Notes under the pieces: generated by a model | What the model saw: only the letters and a program-made list of their open reading frames with translations | The model's database searches: none | What the model was told of the DNA's origin: nothing | From: a virus | Taxonomy: Duplodnaviria; Caudoviricetes | Length of the DNA stretch: 64,000 nt | Strand: one strand, 5' to 3' | IMG/VR virus record: IMGVR_UViG_3300028628_000004 | Made by a program: the position numbers and the translations under genes | Shown here: piece after piece, positions 3,349-36,667 of the stretch | How the letters are laid out: every line of letters begins with the position of its first letter | Numbering within the stretch: the first letter of the stretch is position 1

Positions 3349-6300
3349 GGCGCAAGTCCCCCGTCTACTATTGTCCATCCCTTAGTTCCTGTCAAATACG
3401 ATCTAGCCGATGCTGCTGCTGCGCTATATTTTGATGCGGATTTTAATGGTACATTTGATTGGATGCCAGCGGGAGTTAATCCTTGGGCAGCAAAAGATAT
3501 TAAAGTTGCATCATAATTGTCTTGATTGGCTGAGCTATTGGGGTCATTAATATCTACTCCATTTAAAAAGTCACCCATGTGAGTTACATTTGGTATCTGC
3601 CACGCTGAGAAATCGTGTTTAAGGGCAACACATCCCTCAAATGTACCCTGAAAGCTTCTTGCTTTACTAACATCCCACCCAGTCATATCAGCATTAAATG
3701 CATAGTTCGATGTCCCTAGCATGCGGAACATACCTTGCATACCGACGCTTGGGTTAGTGCCTATCTGACTCATATTCCAAGTAAATGGAGCCTTCACTCC
3801 GGGTGGATATCCGTTATTAAACTTTACTGCGTTGCCAAAACAATACGCACATACTTTTAAGAGAGATGTATCCCATCCATTGAGATTTTGGTTGAAGTCG
3901 CTACAACCATAGAACATGTTAAATGGATTCCAAATTTTTGGTGTATTCCACTTTCCTATTGGTTGATTGAATTTTCCGCAACTCCGAAACATAAATGCCG
4001 TTGATCCCATCTTAGTGGTGTCCCAATTACTTATGTCAGCATTGAATATCGAACACCCTTCAAAAAAAAATCTAAAATCGTTTATGTTTCCAGTGGTGGT
4101 CCAGTTTCGTAGCCCATTTCCAATCATTTTTGAGCATGAGCGGAAGAACGATGTACCGTTAGTTATCTCAGAAAGATTTGGTTGATCTTCAGCCGTAAGA
4201 ATAAGATTATTACAACCATAAAAAACACCACTTGCATTTCCCGACTTCCACGGACCCCATTGTAAAATATCAATCAACTTTCTTCTGTCTCCACCGTTGT
4301 TAAATCTCCAACCATCAATAAGTCCAGTTATCGTAACTATATAAACGCCCGGATAAGCATAGGTATGGGTTTTTGCCGATGAGTTCCATTCTGTTATACG
4401 CTCAGATGTACCATCTCCCCAATCTACAGTAAACGAGTATTTTCCAGAGACGAGCGCAGGAACAGATTCGGTCTGTGGTGCCAAAGGCTCGCCAGCATAA
4501 GAATCAATATATGTACCAATTAAAGGTAATGTTATTTGATTTGATGCCGAAGATCCTGGCTGTGTGGTGTCCCAAACAGTAACAAATTCTGGATAATGCT
4601 CGCCAAACTCAACATGTATTCTATTTTCACCTTCCCATACATTTTTTATCTTTCTACTTGTATGCTCAAGGTATCTGTATATATGGTCATTATTGAATGT
4701 TAAGTCTCTAACATAAACAGAGTTATAAGACGTTAGATTTTCATTGCATACTAACATATTTGCAACTTCGTCTTCTACTGTCTTAATAATAACTTTATCT
4801 TCTATGACTATTATCTTATCGACAACAGCATTGTATTTGGCGACAGGACCGCCAACTGTTCTAAAGAATAAGCTATTACCTATCAATACAAGAATATTTC
4901 CATTATTTGTTTTCTTAACACTTCTAACTTCACCGTTCTCCCCATATACTCTTGAAATTTCTTCAAGTATATCAGTAAGATCCTTTGATTGAGTTGTGTC
5001 ACCAAATACAACTTCTCCTTGAATTGTAGAAGTATACTTGGCATTTCCAACATATGTCAACTCGTTATTAAAGAGCATTCCTGTCATTGTTCCTGTTGCT
5101 CTAAAATTCTTTACAAGATCCTCATTGAAGTTTTCTGCGACAAATGAAGCGTTCGTTTTCCCACCAAGAGTACTTGGGTAGGTGATGTCCATCTTCGAAA
5201 GACCAGTCACGAGATAAACAAGTTCTTCAAAGTCACCGTCCAAGTATCTATTGGAATCGGTTTGGGATATTGGATTGGTGAAATAATTTATAACCAATCT
5301 CTCAGGATCGTCTTTCTCGTTAAAAGTTACACGAATATACTCTGACCCGACAATTGTCTTCAATGTGTACCAAGTTCCCAGTTTTATATTTTTGGTGTCA
5401 TAGTCCCCAAATCCTGCTAGGAATGACTTGTCCATTTTTCCAGTTTCAACATTATATCTTGCAATTCCAAGTCCTATATCAAACCCATATACTCCAACAC
5501 CAACAAAGTAATATCCACCCAAAACTACCTTGTTTGTTATTGGGTCGTATATAGTATATGCTTTAACTATATGTTCAAATTTCTTACCAATGAAGTTTTT
5601 GTTCTTTCCTATTTCCTCATCGAAAATAAAATCAGTAGTAAAATCAAATATTGAATTGTTGTCATCAATAATGTATAGCTTATTGACATTTGGCTTCTCG
5701 GTTTTCGTTACATCTATTTCGTTATTGTTCTTAGTGACCTTACCAGTTTTCTTGTAGTCGAGGAAAAGAGAAGTATTGCTATTAATTGACTTAAAGCTAT
5801 TTTTTCCCTTGAAGTTAATTATGTCGTATGTCAAGTCATTTGATTCAAATACCAGAGAGCTACTTGGTTTTCTTAGCGATGCGGTGAATACTGTGTCGTC
5901 TACCGACTCAAATGGCAGCCACTTTAATCTCTCTATATCAGGATTAAAATTATCTTCTTTGACTCTCTTTTGGTTTTCGGCAAAGAATATATCGTAGAAG
6001 AAACTTCCACGAAGCTCTGCTCCAGCAAATATGCTACTATTCTCTGTTTTTGGAATAGTAATTGAAGTGTCCGAAGTCATTGTGTAAGATTCGTTACTAA
6101 TTCTAAAATTATTTAGGGTTATTTTATCAATGCTCTTTACCCAGTTTCTTAGTAAGTTTACATTTTCTGGAATTTCAAAGACACTAGATGAATTTGACTT
6201 TACAAATACTCTTGAGTCATCAAGAACTCTCCAGTCCATCGAATCTTCGTCAGCTATATTACTTGTGACGGTTATATTAGCTCCCGAATTTATAGTCAAT

Positions 6301-22531: not shown

Positions 22532-22906
22532 TGGTGGAGATGTGCGGTGCTGCCCCGCAGTCCAAAATCACTTTCATATTCCGTCTACAAGTTTAGAAGT
22601 TTAGACTTAAACTCCAAAGATGCTTCTTGTTGATCGTCCTGGCACGGGACTAGGATAATAACGCATATCCGCAACTCACAGTTGTCTTAATCTTGGGTAA
22701 CTGTCAGTTACATTGCCAAGAAGCAACCCCTATGTTACAGAGTTTCCAAGTCGAGATATCCTTGGGACTCTGGCAAGGAGCGATTAAGCTGCCATTGCGT
22801 ATTCAACTGAGTCATCAGTTATTTTTTTACATGTTTTTTAAGTGACCACATGTTCCACTACTTGCAAGAGATACTTCCACGATCCTGTCGAATCTGTGTC
22901 ATCCCC
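22532..22906 (-). ncRNA. ssrA: tmRNA, tag (A)DDSVEYAMAA*
   Basis: 5' GGGGATGA..GATTCGAC, 3' TCTCCACCA with G3.U; ATAACT then tag ORF at 22816..22784. Confidence 0.93.
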
Positions 22907-22912
22907 ATAAAA

Positions 22913-22990
22913 TGGTGTGCATGAGAGGATTCGAACCTCCAACACTTACGCCCTCAACGTAATACCTCGTGCCAATTGGGTTACACGCAC
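22913..22990 (-). tRNA. tRNA-Leu(GAG), short variable loop
   Basis: TTACG-TT-GAG-GG-CGTAA, CCA. Confidence 0.85.
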
Positions 22991-23820
22991 ATATTTTTTT
23001 CTAGCCAATAACCTCTAGGGAATTTTGGAATATCAATCCCTAGTTTTTTGCATCTTTTGCGTATTGCATTATCACTAACACCGAACATTTTAGCTACGCT
23101 GGTTAACGGCATTTCGTTTATATACTTCGTCAAATCACATGAAGAAACATCAAACTTTTTATTATTTTCACTAATTATAAATTCACCGCATTTTCTATTT
23201 TCATTGTAGCATTTTGCACAAACTCCTTTACTTTTTTTCGACACCACACACCCGCACATTTTACACTTTTTTTCGAAGCGTAACTTCTGGTCGTTTTCCT
23301 TTAATAAATTTTTTTGTTTAGTATTCTGAAGTTTTCCTTTATTACCCCATGTCAATGTTTGTGAATGACAGTTTGGGCATAGAAATCTAAGGTTGTTTAT
23401 TCTATTATCATTATGAATGCCGTTAATGTGGTCTACTTGCAATGTTATCTTTTCGCCCATCCACGTGTCGCCGTTATTGCATTTTTCGCATTTATATTCT
23501 CTTCCATTTTCCAATAGACGCTTACTAATCATATAACCACTTGCGGGGGTTGAATTTTCGCAGAAAAAATCTTCGTCTGATTTTCTTACTCTTATAGCCT
23601 GCATTTTTATTCTCATATCAGTCAAGGAGGTTTTCCCGCGTGACCAAGCAGACCCAGTAAAATGAGATATATCTATATTGAAGTATCTAATTAAACTCTT
23701 TATATGATTATGATTTCCACCACTATATGCCAAACCCAGATTTGCTAAAACATTTGATATTGAGGTTGATTTTTTCACAACTTCTTCTAGTATTTCCTTG
23801 GTGTACTTTCGATGTCTCAT
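22981..23820 (-). CDS. HNH homing endonuclease
   Basis: CEKC..LQVDHING..NDNR..NLRFLCPNCHSQT; stop lies inside tRNA-Leu. Confidence 0.9.
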   Translation of the reverse strand: MRHRKYTKEILEEVVKKSTSISNVLANLGLAYSGGNHNHIKSLIRYFNIDISHFTGSAWSRGKTSLTDMRIKMQAIRVRKSDEDFFCENSTPASGYMISKRLLENGREYKCEKCNNGDTWMGEKITLQVDHINGIHNDNRINNLRFLCPNCHSQTLTWGNKGKLQNTKQKNLLKENDQKLRFEKKCKMCGCVVSKKSKGVCAKCYNENRKCGEFIISENNKKFDVSSCDLTKYINEMPLTSVAKMFGVSDNAIRKRCKKLGIDIPKFPRGYWLEKNMCV

Positions 23821-24460: not shown

Positions 24461-24550
24461 TGGCGGAAGATGAGGGATTCGAACCCCCGGTACCCGTTAA
24501 GGTACTTCAAGTTAGTAACTTGCTGCTATAGACCACTCAGCCAATCTTCC
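24461..24550 (-). tRNA. tRNA-Ser(ACT), rare A34 anticodon
   Basis: CAAG-TT-ACT-AA-CTTG in a canonical Ser body with G73. Confidence 0.85.
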
Positions 24551-25348: not shown

Positions 25349-25465
25349 TAAGTATGCTCGGGAGTCGAACCCGACATCATTGGGGTGCATGCAGCCCCTC
25401 CACCGTGGATATGCATCTCTGCATACGGTAGGATTCGAACCTACTAGCGACCATCGACATACTTA
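25349..25465 (-). ncRNA. RNA with two T arms and a 9-bp closing stem, no CCA
   Basis: TAAGTATGT/GCATACTTA; GTAGG-TTCGAAT-CCTAC and TCGGG-TTCGACT-CCCGA. Confidence 0.6.
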
Positions 25466-25468
25466 CTT

Positions 25469-25542
25469 TGGCACATGGGGAGAGAATCGAACTCCCATCT
25501 TTGGGTTTGGAATCCAAGGTACTACCATTGTACGACCCATGT
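25469..25542 (-). tRNA. tRNA-Trp(CCA)
   Basis: TTGGA-TT-CCA-AA-CCCAA, G73. Confidence 0.88.
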
Positions 25543-25550
25543 ATAAAATC

Positions 25551-25940
25551 TTTGTTGACCCATCCGGTGTGCTGTTACGCTAAAACGGTGGTTTGCTTTA
25601 CTATCTATTATACACCCACAATCACACATAATCCACTCGTGTGGACTTTGACGAGCAATAGATTGCTCTGCGTATGAAAGAGAGGCGGATTTCTTACGAA
25701 ACCAATCTTACTCGCCTCACTCGGTGGGAACCCCATACTTGGAGTTGATGTGACAAGTTACTCATACGCTGGCTACAAGTGGTTCTCGGTCTTCCTTTTT
25801 ATCGGCTGTCTTTATAGCTTGCTCTAAGGCTTGCTTTCAAGACTCCTTGTAGTAGTCGTATGCTTGCTCATTTCTATACAGCGCCCGTACTCTTTAAATG
25901 ATGGCTGCTTCTAAGCCGACATTTCGGTTCGGTCAACAAA
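25551..25940 (-). ncRNA. 390-nt RNA containing a split 23S rRNA H43/H44 (uL11-binding) mimic
   Basis: ATGTCGGCTTAGAAGCAGCCATCATTTAAAGAGT ... GCGTAACAGCACACCGG, closed by a 10-bp terminal stem. Confidence 0.75.
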
Positions 25941-26013
25941 ACTTGAGGTTTCTTAAAGTCGCTTATCCTCTTGCGACATGACAGTTTCAACTCCAACTCT
26001 GTCAAAGGGAAAA

Positions 26014-26112
26014 TGGTGCGGGCGACAGGATTTGAACCTGCGATTTCTTGCTCCCTGGCAGTTACTATTAGGTAACTAAAGCAAGCGGAATACCAGACTT
26101 TCCTACACCCAC
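26014..26112 (-). tRNA. tRNA-Pro(TGG)-like with a 22-nt GCCA-ended hairpin insert (26056..26077)
   Basis: CTTGC-TT-T[insert]GG-GA-GCAAG. Confidence 0.75.
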
Positions 26113-26220: not shown

Positions 26221-26931
26221 TTATATTTCAATTCCAAGAATTTTACATCTTTTTCTTATTGCATTATCAGACACCCCGTATTTTACACCTATTTTAGTCA
26301 TAGGCATTTTGCTAACATCATCCATTAACTGCTCTTTACTAACTTCAAATTTACGGCGTTTCTTACAAGAACATTTTAGACATTTATTGTTTTTATTTTT
26401 TGTTGTTACACACCCACATTCGTCACAGTTATGTCTTTTTGCGTGATATTGTTTATTTTTACCAGAAAAAGTAGAAGTTTGAGAGTGGCAGTTTGGGCAT
26501 AAGAAACATAGATTTTCTATTCTGTTATCATTATGTATTCCATTCTTATGTTCTAATTGAAGAGTTATTATCTTACCCAACCATACTCCATTGTTCCCAC
26601 AGCAACTACACTCGTATTTTAGTAATCCTTCATTGACCAATCTTTTTTTAAGATAATGTCTAGCGTATGATGAATTCTGGGTTAATACCTGTGATAATGG
26701 TTTCTTCTTGGCGTTAAATTTTCTACCTTTATTGGAACCTACGCCGAGTGCTATATGTGAAATATCTACTTTTTCTTCGATGCATCTATTTTTAATTGTC
26801 TTGTAATTTCCTCCTTTATTTTCCATTCCGACATATTTTAGTATTTCGCTTATAGTGTTAGATGATGCTACTAATCTAGCGAATTCTTCTTTTGGTATTT
26901 TCCAAATTATGCTTCTCTTTTTTCTTGTCAT
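26221..26931 (-). CDS. HNH homing endonuclease, paralog of 22981..23820
   Basis: LQLEHKNG..NDNRIENLCFLCPNCHSQT; shared GVSDNAIRKRCK tail. Confidence 0.9.
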   Translation of the reverse strand: MTRKKRSIIWKIPKEEFARLVASSNTISEILKYVGMENKGGNYKTIKNRCIEEKVDISHIALGVGSNKGRKFNAKKKPLSQVLTQNSSYARHYLKKRLVNEGLLKYECSCCGNNGVWLGKIITLQLEHKNGIHNDNRIENLCFLCPNCHSQTSTFSGKNKQYHAKRHNCDECGCVTTKNKNNKCLKCSCKKRRKFEVSKEQLMDDVSKMPMTKIGVKYGVSDNAIRKRCKILGIEI

Positions 26932-27068: not shown

Positions 27069-27188
27069 TAGTTGGGAGTGAGGGATTCGAACCCCCACAG
27101 AGAGATCCTGGCGACTGTTTATGGACTTGAACCACATTGTTTCCTATAACAATCAAAGTCTCTCGTCCTACCATTAGACGAACCCCCA
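27069..27188 (-). tRNA. tRNA-Gln(TTG) with a 46-nt mini-tRNA insert (27109..27154)
   Basis: AGAGA-CT-TT[insert]G-GA-TCTCT; host tRNA ends in CTA rather than CCA. Confidence 0.8.
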
Positions 27189-28066: not shown

Positions 28067-28089
28067 TGAGCGTCCTCATTGCCCTATCA

Positions 28090-28160
28090 AGTATCATTAC
28101 GGAATCGAACCGTTCCTCCCGCGTCATAAGCGGGTATGCATCCGTTACACCAAAGATACT
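28090..28160 (-). tRNA. tRNA-His(ATG), rare A34 anticodon, no CCA
   Basis: CCCGC-TT-ATG-AC-GCGGG. Confidence 0.7.
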
Positions 28161-28330: not shown

Positions 28331-28447
28331 AAAAGACCACACCGTTTCTGCATTGTTAAGAGGCTGGTATGGTGCTACTGAACGACCACTCATGGTTGAG
28401 CATCTTAGAGAGGCTTGAGTGGGGCGGAGCCGTTTCATGCTCCTTAT

Positions 28448-31592: not shown

Positions 31593-31922
31593 TTACTTCA
31601 AAAGCGACAGCTTACCGAAAATAGCTTTGGACACTTCGTTGTCGATGGGTTCAAAAGCAGTTGCGGTTTCTGCGTTAGACATATCGGGTTCTATGAAGGT
31701 GGTGTATGATAACTCCATTCTGTCATAGAGTGCCTTTATGCTTGCAATTTCGTTATCCGTTGCGGAGAGAAGAATCATTGTCTTGTGGTTGTTCACCCAA
31801 TCAATGACTTTGGGCTTCTGTCCGTGTTGTGCCATAAACTCGGCAGCCGCGTGGCTACTCTGTACAGCACAATGAGTTAACGGAAGTATATCTCGTCTGA
31901 TGAGGATGAACATCTTAAGCAT
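31593..31922 (-). CDS. Peptidyl-tRNA hydrolase, Pth2-like
   Basis: KMFILIRRD....CAVQSSHAAAE...W...KTMILL...FIEPD...ETATAFEP; GGAGG RBS. Confidence 0.8.
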   Translation of the reverse strand: MLKMFILIRRDILPLTHCAVQSSHAAAEFMAQHGQKPKVIDWVNNHKTMILLSATDNEIASIKALYDRMELSYTTFIEPDMSNAETATAFEPIDNEVSKAIFGKLSLLK

Positions 31923-31926
31923 TTTG

Positions 31927-32313
31927 CTATATACCTCCGGTGCCACAGGCACACTCGGGTATGAGAGCATCTTGTTTCTCCTTGACGTAATCTTCCATTC
32001 TCTTACGAATGATTTCAGAAGACTGAACATATTCTTTTTCTCTCTCTTCGTTTAAGTGGCACTTACCACGAACCTGTCCATACGCTATATGCATACAAGT
32101 AGTCCGGTACTTATCGTTGCGGATTGCGTTCTCTGCACACCACCAGTATTTTTCACCTGATGTATCGTAGGGGTAGGCATTGCCTGGAAGTCCAGTTGAT
32201 GCACTACGCTGGTTGCGGCGTAAAGCCTGTTTGTTGTGAGCAAGTCTCTCAGCGAGAGTCTTGATTTCGCTGCGGAAAAATTCCATTGCGAGTTTATGTT
32301 GGGTTATATCCAT
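31927..32313 (-). CDS. Hypothetical protein co-transcribed with Pth2
   Basis: AAGGA RBS; HIAYGQVRGK. Confidence 0.75.
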   Translation of the reverse strand: MDITQHKLAMEFFRSEIKTLAERLAHNKQALRRNQRSASTGLPGNAYPYDTSGEKYWWCAENAIRNDKYRTTCMHIAYGQVRGKCHLNEEREKEYVQSSEIIRKRMEDYVKEKQDALIPECACGTGGI

Positions 32314-32445: not shown

Positions 32446-32521
32446 TGGTGCTTCCGGTGGGATTTTAACCCACAACCAAGCGGTTTAGAATCGCTTGCTC
32501 TTTCATTTGAGCTACGGAGGC
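32446..32521 (-). tRNA. Amber suppressor tRNA (CTA)
   Basis: AGCGA-TT-CTA-AA-CCGCT, full cloverleaf, ACCA. Confidence 0.8.
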
Positions 32522-34606: not shown

Positions 34607-34726
34607 TGGCTGGAAAGAAGGGATTCGAACCCCTGACCTAGTGATTATGGTGATGAGCGTAAGAGTTGAACTTACTGATTCCTTTGCCCATTACAGTCAC
34701 TTGCACTACCGCTGTGCTACTTTCCA
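34607..34726 (-). tRNA. tRNA-Asn(GTT) with a 45-nt mini-tRNA insert (34648..34692)
   Basis: AGTGA-CT-GT[insert]T-AA-TCACT. Confidence 0.8.
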
Positions 34727-35707: not shown

Positions 35708-35781
35708 TGGAAGCGCAGAAAGGAGTCGCACCTTTATCTATTGGTTATGAGCCAATTATGCTACTGTTACACCACCGCGCA
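35708..35781 (-). tRNA. tRNA-Met(CAT), 1:72 mismatch
   Basis: ATTGG-CT-CAT-AA-CCAAT. Confidence 0.8.
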
Positions 35782-36530
35782 GTGTTAATACGAATTCTAC
35801 CCTTTACAAATCCCATTTCTATATATTTGTTTATGTCATTTTTATTTATTCTAAAACATTCACCAGTTTGAAGATTCTTCACCCATATGAGTTGAGAATA
35901 TATTTTACCATATCTCTCTTTCATAGTGTTTGATAAGTTTTCTCTTGTTTCTTTCGATGACATTCTTTCTTTCATTTTTTGTGAAAGTAATGTCTTAGTT
36001 TCGTTACTTCCACATTCACTCTCTTTTTTGTATCTTTCTTTTACTGATAATGAGATTTTGTTTCTTACCTCATCATTTATATATCTTTTCTTTGCTCTAT
36101 CTGACATTTTCTTTCTCGTTTCATCTGATATAATTCTTGTCTTATTAGTATCTATCATTTTTTGTTTTGATTCTTTCGAGTAGGTTTTTGGTTTCTGACT
36201 TATTATGGAGAGCTTTCTTTTTGTCTCATCAGTGTGATTCTTTCCTCTAAACTTTGGTCCACCTTCGCCACCAACTGATATGTTATAAACATCTTTTCTT
36301 TTTATAAAATCTTCATTCACAATAAGTATTTCCATTTTATCCATTTGCTCTTCGTTGTCAAAAACATGGAGTATTTCTTTTGTAAAGTTACTTCTCCCAT
36401 ATTTCTTAACGGCAGCCTTTATATGATGTCCGGAACCTAAGTAATCATCGTTGATATTTTCGGTTTGGTGCTTCCCAATGTAAATCTTACCGTTTATCTT
36501 ATTAGTTATCTTGTATATGGTATAAAACAT
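35745..36530 (-). CDS. GIY-YIG homing endonuclease (Seg-like) with NUMOD3-type repeats
   Basis: TIYKITNKINGKIYIG; YNISVGGEG; HTDETKRKLS; GGAG RBS. Confidence 0.9.
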   Translation of the reverse strand: MFYTIYKITNKINGKIYIGKHQTENINDDYLGSGHHIKAAVKKYGRSNFTKEILHVFDNEEQMDKMEILIVNEDFIKRKDVYNISVGGEGGPKFRGKNHTDETKRKLSIISQKPKTYSKESKQKMIDTNKTRIISDETRKKMSDRAKKRYINDEVRNKISLSVKERYKKESECGSNETKTLLSQKMKERMSSKETRENLSNTMKERYGKIYSQLIWVKNLQTGECFRINKNDINKYIEMGFVKGRIRINTARWCNSSIIGS

Positions 36531-36667
36531 AATACTCCTATTATACCAGTATTTATATTTCATAACCAAACGATTTACTGCTTCTCTATCAAAAATGGGA
36601 GCCAACCTAACGCAAGCTAGGGACACTTTTTACGGCTATCACAACTTACATACGACACAGATGAATC

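Follow-up and report, generated by a model that had tools for sequence, protein, structure and literature searches.

The subject of this analysis is a putative non-coding RNA element on the minus strand of a 64,000-nucleotide (nt) stretch of viral DNA (IMG/VR record IMGVR_UViG_3300028628_000004; Duplodnaviria, Caudoviricetes), hereafter called the window. The element spans positions 25551-25940 (about 390 nt, both strands of its closing stem included), and its two ends closely resemble the GTPase-associated centre (GAC) of bacterial 23S rRNA. In 23S rRNA, nt ~1051-1108 constitute the uL11/thiostrepton site at the uL10 stalk base. The reference used here is the 23S rRNA of a real E. coli rrn operon (L222), and rRNA positions are given in E. 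coli numbering. All parts of the element described below lie on the minus strand.

The element is closed by a 10-bp stem, an extension of helix 42 (H42), in which UUUGUUGACC (25931-25940) pairs with GGUCAACAAA (25551-25560, pairing with 25940-25931). Inside this stem lies the 5′ half, corresponding to nt 1051-1090 (25889-25928). It begins with the 5′ strand of the H42 tip (nt 1052-1056, 25923-25927), whose CCG pairs with CGG at 25564-25566. The copy of helix 43 (H43) follows (nt 1057-1081 with the 1067 loop, 25898-25922; A1067 is at 25912) and differs from E. coli only at position 1061. UUAAA, which forms the 1082-1086 turn, comes next, together with GAGU (nt 1087-1090) as the 5′ strand of the base of helix 44 (H44); the two occupy 25889-25897, with U1090 at 25889. 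An insert of exactly 308 nt including its linker (25581-25888) then splits the GAC copy between nt 1090 and 1091. It consists of a highly structured domain of 304 nt (25585-25888), which is closed by ACGG/CCGU and includes a GNRA-capped hairpin, and a UUUA linker to G1091 (25581-25584) whose family-wide form is UUU(G/A). The tip of H44 and the returning strand of H42 come after the insert as the 3′ half (nt 1091-1108, GCGUAACAGC-ACAC-CGGA, 25580-25563); within it, A1095 is at 25576, and A1101, which is specific to the family, is at 25570. The rRNA sequence stops at the H42-like 10-bp stem and the CCG/CGG pairing, by which the element closes itself.

Between nt 1057 and 1104, 43 of the 48 positions are identical to the E. 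coli 23S rRNA (31/32 for nt 1057-1088 and 12/14 for nt 1091-1104). The 18-nt core GGCUUAGAAGCAGCCAUC occurs only once in the window, where 0.02 occurrences would be expected by chance at ≤3 mismatches. The first-pass annotation of the window had proposed a split GAC mimic in a phage RNA. On re-reading 25401-26100, every string quoted there was present on the minus strand in its place, and both halves of the GAC, with the H42 tip, H43 and H44, are found in order around an insert within a 10-bp stem, as it had described. Its reading of the stem and insert holds overall. A small correction concerns position 1055, which is A in the window, so that the H42 tip contains an A1055·C1104 mismatch next to the A1056·A1103 juxtaposition. 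The structural reading, in which the uL11/thiostrepton domain is mimicked in split form by an RNA that stands alone and is not part of an rRNA gene, is strongly supported. The functions that the annotation put forward (titration of uL11/uL10 to damp the stringent response, a decoy for toxins, or recruitment of GTPases) are more tentative, so that its interpretation is supported in part; they are qualified by the variability of the exposed bases and by the absence of a sarcin-ricin-loop module from the window, both described below.

The annotation had also stated that no other rRNA lies nearby, and this is borne out by Rfam. At the gathering threshold, the whole 64 kb contains only tRNAs, one transfer-messenger RNA (tmRNA) and one abiF motif, and no rRNA. 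In the spacer between tRNA-Thr and tRNA-Trp, which holds the element, Rfam 15 gives zero matches at the gathering threshold and also at E ≤ 10; the element is likewise unmatched by LSU_rRNA_bacteria at both settings, and its flanks are tRNAs. The minimum free energy (MFE) of the element is −118.2 kcal/mol (z = −4.5 against shuffles), and the unconstrained MFE fold recovers the outer stem, H43 and the H44 tip.

Relatives of the element are numerous. A scan of viral contigs for the 5′ half followed by a nucleotide other than G found nine loci, and in 9/9 the 3′ half follows after inserts of 91-215 nt; the closing stems of these loci differ in sequence, with pairing retained. A scan for the family-type 3′ half gave at least 120 loci, with the 5′ half of the GAC upstream in 90 of the 125 sequences examined. 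Independently, a scan ascertained on the 5′ half gave at least 99 elements with the 3′ half, and the 13 full-length cases lacking it proved to be unrelated coding sequence. The merged set, which covers the matches listed in the two scans, comprises at least 149 loci and at least 127 non-identical elements, with insert lengths of 27-445 nt (median 131 nt). The first-pass annotation had named a lack of homologues keeping both halves as grounds for refutation, and on this point the outcome is clearly in its favour. Both halves, the UUU(G/A) linker and A1101 are common to all 127 split members collected. The window shows the same organization: a 5′ half (nt 1057-1090, ending in GAGU) and then a 3′ half (GCGUANNAGC-ACAY) on the same strand, an insert at 1090/1091 with its own closing helix, the UUUA linker and A1101.

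Cultured carriers include the jumbo phages GAP32 of Cronobacter (locus at 289498-289778), CBB of Pectobacterium and BF of Serratia. Further ones are Erwinia phage Kaldavass, six Erwinia pEa_SNUABM phages and Xanthomonas phage XbC2, and more weakly Yersinia phage fHe-Yen9-04. In these records the locus is either unannotated or labelled as a hypothetical protein. When prokaryote genomes were scanned, 108 of the matches were ordinary 23S genes with the two halves contiguous, and 11 were elements of the split kind. One of the latter (~3550-3860) is on the complete chromosome of Acidithiobacillus sp. M4-SHS-6 (L325, NZ_CP175559.1), between tRNA-Val and tRNA-Trp inside an array of 38 tRNAs. Since this element sits in a chromosomal tRNA array, the arrays with which the family moves also include some that cellular genomes carry or have integrated. 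The window phage has no close cultured relative among 50,697 phage records. A BLAST search of these with the element and its 4-kb surroundings gave only 37-nt rRNA-like matches and matches to homing endonucleases. Relatives found through a neighbouring open reading frame (ORF) of 145 amino acids (14 loci, 27-38% identity) have no GAC element in the DNA examined.

We could not find this large phage RNA family described in Rfam 15, which has no model for it, or in the literature, including two large surveys of phage structured RNAs. The non-coding RNAs ncRNA001, 002 and 004 of Pseudomonas phage PA5oct, which were defined by RNA-seq, were considered and are not members. Microcystis phage PhiMa05 encodes uL11, and its paper draws no connection to such an RNA.

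The family allows the fold to be examined by covariation. At pair 1058:1080, UA (41), GC (19), AU (13) and CG (4) are all found; pair 1057:1081 is AU (74) or CG (7), pair 1082:1086 is UA (46), CG (23) or AU (10), and pair 1054:1105 is GC (58), AU (21) or UA (2). In the outer pairs of H42, all four Watson-Crick types are seen across the family. Overall, 82% of the variable pairs are paired, in comparison with 30-46% when the partners are shifted by 1-3 nt. The non-canonical juxtapositions of the rRNA, G/A1056·A1103 and U1060·U1078, remain unpaired, and G1059-C1079, U1060, A1077, A1084, A1085, G1087 and A1088 are invariant. In the 5′-ascertained sample, the 3′ half reads UUU(G/A)-GCGUA(A/G)N-AGC-ACA(C/U), and one member has a compensatory change from C-G to U-A at 1092:1099. 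Position 1055:1104 should be noted, since it is G-C in 80/81 relatives and mismatched in the window. The uL10 site of the ribosome spans nearly all of H42. Only about 10 generic bp of upper H42 are kept in the family, and pairing fades past 1047:1112.

The exposed bases are kept less strictly. Position 1067 is A in 70/81 relatives (86%) and position 1095 is A in 93/99 (94%), and positions 1096 and 1097 are variable. The bases that meet factors, tRNA and thiostrepton are less constrained than the core that forms the fold. Because the exposed loop bases vary more than the core, the fold and its recognition by uL11 are favoured over contact with factors as the property under selection. The determinants of the uL11 domain that the element retains are the minor-groove surface of the H43 stem, U1060-A1088, 1082:1086 and the compact three-helix fold.

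Position 1101 is A in all split members, in contrast to U in E. coli, and this permits a U1090-A1101 pair below the junction. GAC copies that lack an insert and close on themselves were found at only three viral-contig loci (L376:4887-4908, L377:332-353 and L378:1793-1814). They are of two distinct types, keep U1101 as in rRNA, and are not accompanied by tRNAs in their vicinity; in L376 and L377, moreover, position 1067 is C and position 1072 is U. Since A1101 accompanies the insert and these minis keep U1101, the sequences suggest that A1101 is an adaptation to a three-way junction.

Every insert in the family has its own covarying closing helix, and the interiors are of several types. In 30/127 members (class A), the 3′ part of the insert holds a module whose offset is fixed, GAAGUR ... 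CAC-[CCN-tetraloop-N′GG]-UAAGG. Others belong to a class framed by YUAGAG or carry modules resembling the sarcin-ricin loop (SRL) of 23S rRNA, and some are merely hairpins of 27-45 nt that have no conserved sequence. The window insert has AGUAAAG at the class A offset, which is only a weak resemblance; the corresponding window-variant pattern (AGUAAAG, 11 nt, UUUR-GCGUA) gave 31 viral-contig matches, all of them by chance. A remembered likeness of the class A GAAGUAG to H91 of 23S rRNA was dropped, as that sequence is a hairpin loop in rRNA and was not recovered by BLAST.

A near-exact SRL core is present in nine long inserts and in one more found with a covariance model, that is, in 10/127 members (~8%). 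The chance expectation is ~0.8 at ≤3 mismatches and 0.06 at ≤2, and 7/9 have ≤2. Its stem aligns column for column with E. coli H95. The stem covaries strongly: all six pairs (6/6) are changed on both sides, 92.6% of the stem cells are paired, in comparison with 24-52% when the partners are slid, and the observed score was attained by 0/500 shuffles. When the inserts were compared with E. coli 16S, 23S and 5S rRNA, the SRL alone exceeded shuffled controls. The carriers with inserts of >300 nt are L048, L056, L076, L129, L136, L182, L189, L195 and L205 (more weakly L133); their SRL is framed by GUAAG ... UUAAC, and they have in common the insert base UGCGAG ... GGAGCA-UUUG.

The window insert does not carry this module. 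The SRL hairpin AGUACGAGAGGA had no regular-expression match in it at ≤3 mismatches, the best hit of the SRL covariance model R1 in the window with filters off (E = 2.6) lies outside the element, and the insert does not align with the SRL-bearing group. The best rRNA match of the window insert (E ~4, 23S 2624-2661, just upstream of the SRL) was treated as chance, the covariance model giving it no support. No relatives of the window insert were found in IMG/VR. The closest relative of the element as a whole is a single 93%-identical copy on metagenome contig L383, with the same tRNA order and the same tRNA-Trp neighbour. It has an A1055-U1104 pair in place of the A1055·C1104 mismatch of the window. 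Among the 16 predicted pairs touched by substitutions between the two, nine stay paired, two of them through two-sided changes, while random single changes would retain pairing in 18.5%. The GNRA-capped hairpin, for example, is GGUUUC-GUAA-GAAAUC in the window and AGUCUC-GAAA-GAAACU in L383. Because the substitutions keep the predicted helices, the window insert is judged to be under structural selection, and it can be regarded as a new insert type within the family.

The surroundings of the element are dominated by tRNA genes. The window looks like part of a large tailed phage genome, with a baseplate hub/lysozyme, ribonucleotide reductase, methyltransferases and homing endonucleases, and its minus strand from ~22.3 to 38.8 kb carries 35 tRNA genes, the tmRNA and a PTH2-type peptidyl-tRNA hydrolase. 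The element occupies the spacer between tRNA-Thr(AGU) upstream (26014-26112, minus strand), which has a 25-nt insertion in its anticodon loop, and tRNA-Trp downstream (25469-25542, minus strand), which starts ~9 nt past the closing stem as called by ARAGORN. The RNase P site of tRNA-Trp would likely define the 3′ side of the element. Eleven tRNAs on the same strand lie within 3 kb. A sigma-70-like promoter and an intrinsic terminator were both absent from the spacer, and ORFs on the element strand there do not exceed 43 amino acids; no ribosomal-protein gene is near the element, its neighbours being tRNA genes.

The same arrangement is seen across the family. All tRNA genes within 3 kb of 81 elements are on the element strand (354/354), and 46 of the 81 have a tRNA within 300 nt, often 2-15 nt away. 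These same-strand tRNAs fix the strand of the element and imply co-transcription with the array and release by tRNA-processing enzymes. Clustering of ORFs at the 127 loci revealed no obligate protein neighbour, the maximum being HNH endonucleases in 16/113 locus groups; the other recurrent neighbours are a CCA-adding enzyme, a PNK-like kinase and a metallophosphoesterase. In five near-complete genomes of carrier phages no uL11, uL10, EF-Tu-type GTPase or RelA/SpoT domain was found, and the cellular controls were positive. A protein partner, if any, would therefore be encoded by the host. In G005 (the record of L157), a 323-kb carrier phage, an ORF at 207889-208059 on the plus strand matches the C-terminal domain of bL12 (33.6 bits, above the curated cut-off). 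None of the other four carrier genomes has this domain above the cut-off, though G003 has a weak sub-threshold match.

Other features of the array were observed as well. The tmRNA is at 22532-22906 (108.7 bits) and the PTH2-type ORF at 31593-32030 (E = 2e-8), both on the minus strand. Together with the 35 tRNAs and the GAC mimic they look like an island for translation supply and rescue. The abiF RNA match (RF03085) is at 28385-28422 on the minus strand, inside the tRNA array (41.6 bits against a gathering threshold of 37). Three minus-strand tRNA genes contain extra sequence and have good tRNA-model scores (26017-26112, 27072-27188 and 34610-34726). In the alignments of the first two, the insertions (25 and 48 nt) are just 3′ of the anticodon, the canonical intron position; the third gene is 117 nt long, both 117-nt genes were missed by ARAGORN, and the insertions are below the size of a group I intron. 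ARAGORN also reports a 'Pyl' tRNA with a CUA anticodon, of the amber-suppressor type (32446-32521, minus strand). The tRNAs with A34 in the anticodon, unusual for bacteria, are Ser-ACU, His-AUG and Thr-AGU (24461-24550, 28089-28160 and 26014-26112, minus strand), and Ser-ACU is also present in L383. Two HNH genes and one GIY-YIG homing-endonuclease gene lie among the tRNAs (22981-23820, 26221-26931 and 35745-36626, minus strand).

What is observed comprises the sequence and its family, the conservation of the fold, the strand, and the setting in a tRNA array; transcript ends, uL11 binding and a physiological effect of the RNA are inferred as follows. The element would be the gene for a stable non-coding RNA of ~0.4 kb that is transcribed with the tRNA array and freed by tRNA-processing enzymes. 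The ends of this RNA may fold into a free-standing uL11-binding domain that comprises the H42 tip, H43, the 1082-1086 turn and H44, and the structured insert would project from a three-way junction in H44 made by the U1090-A1101 pair and the UUUR linker. Host uL11 recognizes exactly such a fold, and would be captured by the RNA or offered a second uL11-RNA surface. Away from the ribosome, the RNA would thus mimic the stalk base that uL11 binds, with host uL11 as its most likely ligand; we give this reading a probability of roughly 0.45. The choice of uL11 as the primary ligand is based on the conservation of the core over the tips and on the reported footprint of uL11 on H43. Reportedly, uL11 uses the apical hairpin and basal nucleotides of H43 (PMC1635324), all of which are retained in the element. 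The contacts of uL10 are mainly to the backbone (PMC1635324), so that uL10 might bind as well despite the shortened H42.

Capture of uL11 could lower its occupancy on the ribosome and so alter how the ribosomes of the infected cell deal with partners that depend on uL11, for instance by blunting RelA activation. This last step is proposed because loss of uL11 (relC) blunts RelA activation. Several points weigh against uL11 capture. Titration needs an RNA that is abundant relative to ribosomes and an exchange of uL11 in vivo. A pure uL11 sponge leaves the near-universal presence of the insert, its diversity (27-445 nt) and the addition of the SRL in ~8% of relatives unexplained. The A1055·C1104 mismatch slightly weakens the H42 tip in the window. 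Finally, changes of A1067 have no strong influence on how RelA is activated by starved complexes (PMC5829649), so that the RNA surface itself is not the key determinant for RelA.

An alternative is that the RNA works as a target decoy, absorbing or inhibiting weapons aimed at the factor-binding site of the ribosome (rRNA ADP-ribosyltransferases, nucleases, N-glycosidases or thiopeptides) and so shielding translation during infection, in parallel with tRNA arrays, which are thought to buffer attacks on tRNA. We regard this as unlikely, although the surroundings fit it in several respects. The element lies amid 35 tRNAs, the tmRNA and PTH2, and relatives are near a CCA-adding enzyme, a PNK-like kinase and a phosphoesterase. 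The antitoxin-like abiF motif is in the same array, and a phage abiF-like antitoxin RNA could be an anti-defence mimic, which fits a decoy theme for the array. We know of no defence system in phage-host conflicts that is aimed at the GAC, which counts against a decoy. Toxins with exactly these RNA targets are known, namely Tre23, which ADP-ribosylates positions 1095-1098 in H44, and VapC-mt20/26, which cut the SRL (PMC8661411), a second toxin target that is added in a subset of relatives. However, positions 1096 and 1097 in the loop targeted by Tre23 vary freely, A1067 and A1095 are not invariant, and the decoy must outcompete tens of thousands of ribosomes for a catalytic enzyme.

The constancy of the frame and the variety of its contents raise the question of whether the variable insert does the work and the GAC fold serves it as a stable, nuclease-resistant chassis, perhaps with protection by uL11; in the window, the function would then lie in the unique 308-nt insert. 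The frame and the insertion point (1090/1091, UUUR, A1101) are constant and the inserts diverse and modular, versions lacking an insert are rare (three loci, with U1101), and the window insert is under structural selection. This explanation is nevertheless quite improbable, since some inserts are just 27-45-nt hairpins, so that the frame alone seems enough for retention, and since so exact a copy of a functional rRNA site exceeds the needs of a mere chassis.

Very doubtful, too, is a miniature docking platform, on which the RNA, with or without uL11, would bind translational GTPases or the elbow of tRNA entering the A site and thereby modulate elongation, initiation or RelA. Oligonucleotides of the GAC and the SRL on their own bind EF-G (Munishkin and Wool 1997, as cited in PMC5829649). 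The citing paper also describes stacking of A1067 on the tRNA elbow and a contact of the SRL with the acceptor stem of the A/R tRNA (PMC5829649), and 10/127 relatives have the near-exact SRL on a covarying stem. The SRL module is, however, absent from the window and from 92% of the family, and no part of the core is conserved less well than the bases that contact factors. Sequestration of elongation factors would also hurt the translation of the phage itself.

That the flanks are exons and the insert an intron, removed by self-splicing or in some other way, or that the element is a decaying fragment of host 23S rRNA acquired by recombination, is largely refuted and keeps hardly any probability: rRNA introns are known in this region of 23S rRNA, HNH (twice) and GIY-YIG homing-endonuclease genes are scattered through the array, and two nearby tRNA genes have short insertions at the intron position, but intron and rRNA models are unmatched even at E ≤ 10, inserts are as short as 27 nt and have no common core, the flanks end at a covarying self-closing stem beyond which there is no rRNA, and the inserts of relatives carry conserved modules that look functional (SRL). 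Moreover, phages whose hosts are unrelated have GAGU, A1101 and UUUR in common, and these signatures are not those of enterobacterial 23S rRNA, which argues for a vertically evolving RNA gene and not for repeated capture of host rDNA. The GAC-mimic element belongs to an RNA family and is neither an rRNA relic nor an intron.

The uL11-site mimic is thus the reading we prefer. In a broader form, many phages and some mobile elements with tRNA arrays would make free-standing RNA copies of the stalk base, a class of viral RNA not recognized before. Such copies would capture host uL11, translation factors or toxins directed at the ribosome, and translation during infection would thereby be reprogrammed or shielded; the SRL in some lineages would extend the copy to the whole factor-docking site. 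For this joint statement the odds are about even.

Phages carry tRNAs, tmRNA and a few ribosomal proteins. If the interpretation is true, a widespread and conserved RNA gene that copies a functional centre of rRNA represents a new viral route into translation. It bears on why jumbo phages have islands of translation-related genes, on the manipulation of the stringent response by phages via uL11, and on rRNA as a battlefield between phage and host. The tractable cultured carriers (GAP32, CBB, BF and the Erwinia pEa_SNUABM phages) put the question within direct reach of experiment. In addition, the fold is a compact RNA of natural origin that is predicted to bind uL11 and thiopeptides and has a tolerated insertion site, and it may serve as an RNA scaffold.

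Among known systems, the closest is the 58-nt domain of the bacterial 23S GAC itself. The element is the same in its helices, its non-canonical juxtapositions and its tertiary partners, that is, U1060/A1088, 1082:1086, and C1072 with C1092-G1099. It differs in lying outside rRNA among phage tRNA arrays, in having its own stem after ~10 bp of H42, in the interruption of H44, and in having A in place of U1101. GOLLD and ROOL are likewise long structured phage non-coding RNAs of unknown function that are often adjacent to tRNAs; however, the element has no similarity to them in sequence or model (their Rfam models are unmatched), and neither imitates rRNA. Other phage RNA mimics that act against host systems, such as the pseudo-ToxI antitoxin RNA and tRNA arrays acting as counter-defence, are likewise structured RNAs borne by phages that copy or substitute for an RNA of the host, in a similar genomic neighbourhood, whereas the present element imitates an rRNA domain, for which we found no precedent. 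The leaders of ribosomal-protein mRNAs (rplJ/L10, L1, S15) also share a principle with the element, namely that an RNA off the ribosome imitates the rRNA site of a ribosomal protein. Those leaders are cis-acting parts of mRNAs, usually with a loose likeness to rRNA, while the element is a stand-alone RNA gene between tRNAs and is nearly identical to rRNA; no Rfam leader model matches it. Finally, the 'ribosome-in-pieces' RNAs of the SRL and the thiostrepton domain (Munishkin and Wool 1997, as cited in PMC5829649) are free copies of the same rRNA elements, and these laboratory constructs show that such fragments can fold and bind ligands off the ribosome. The phage element, by comparison, is naturally encoded, bears an insert and is conserved across phages.

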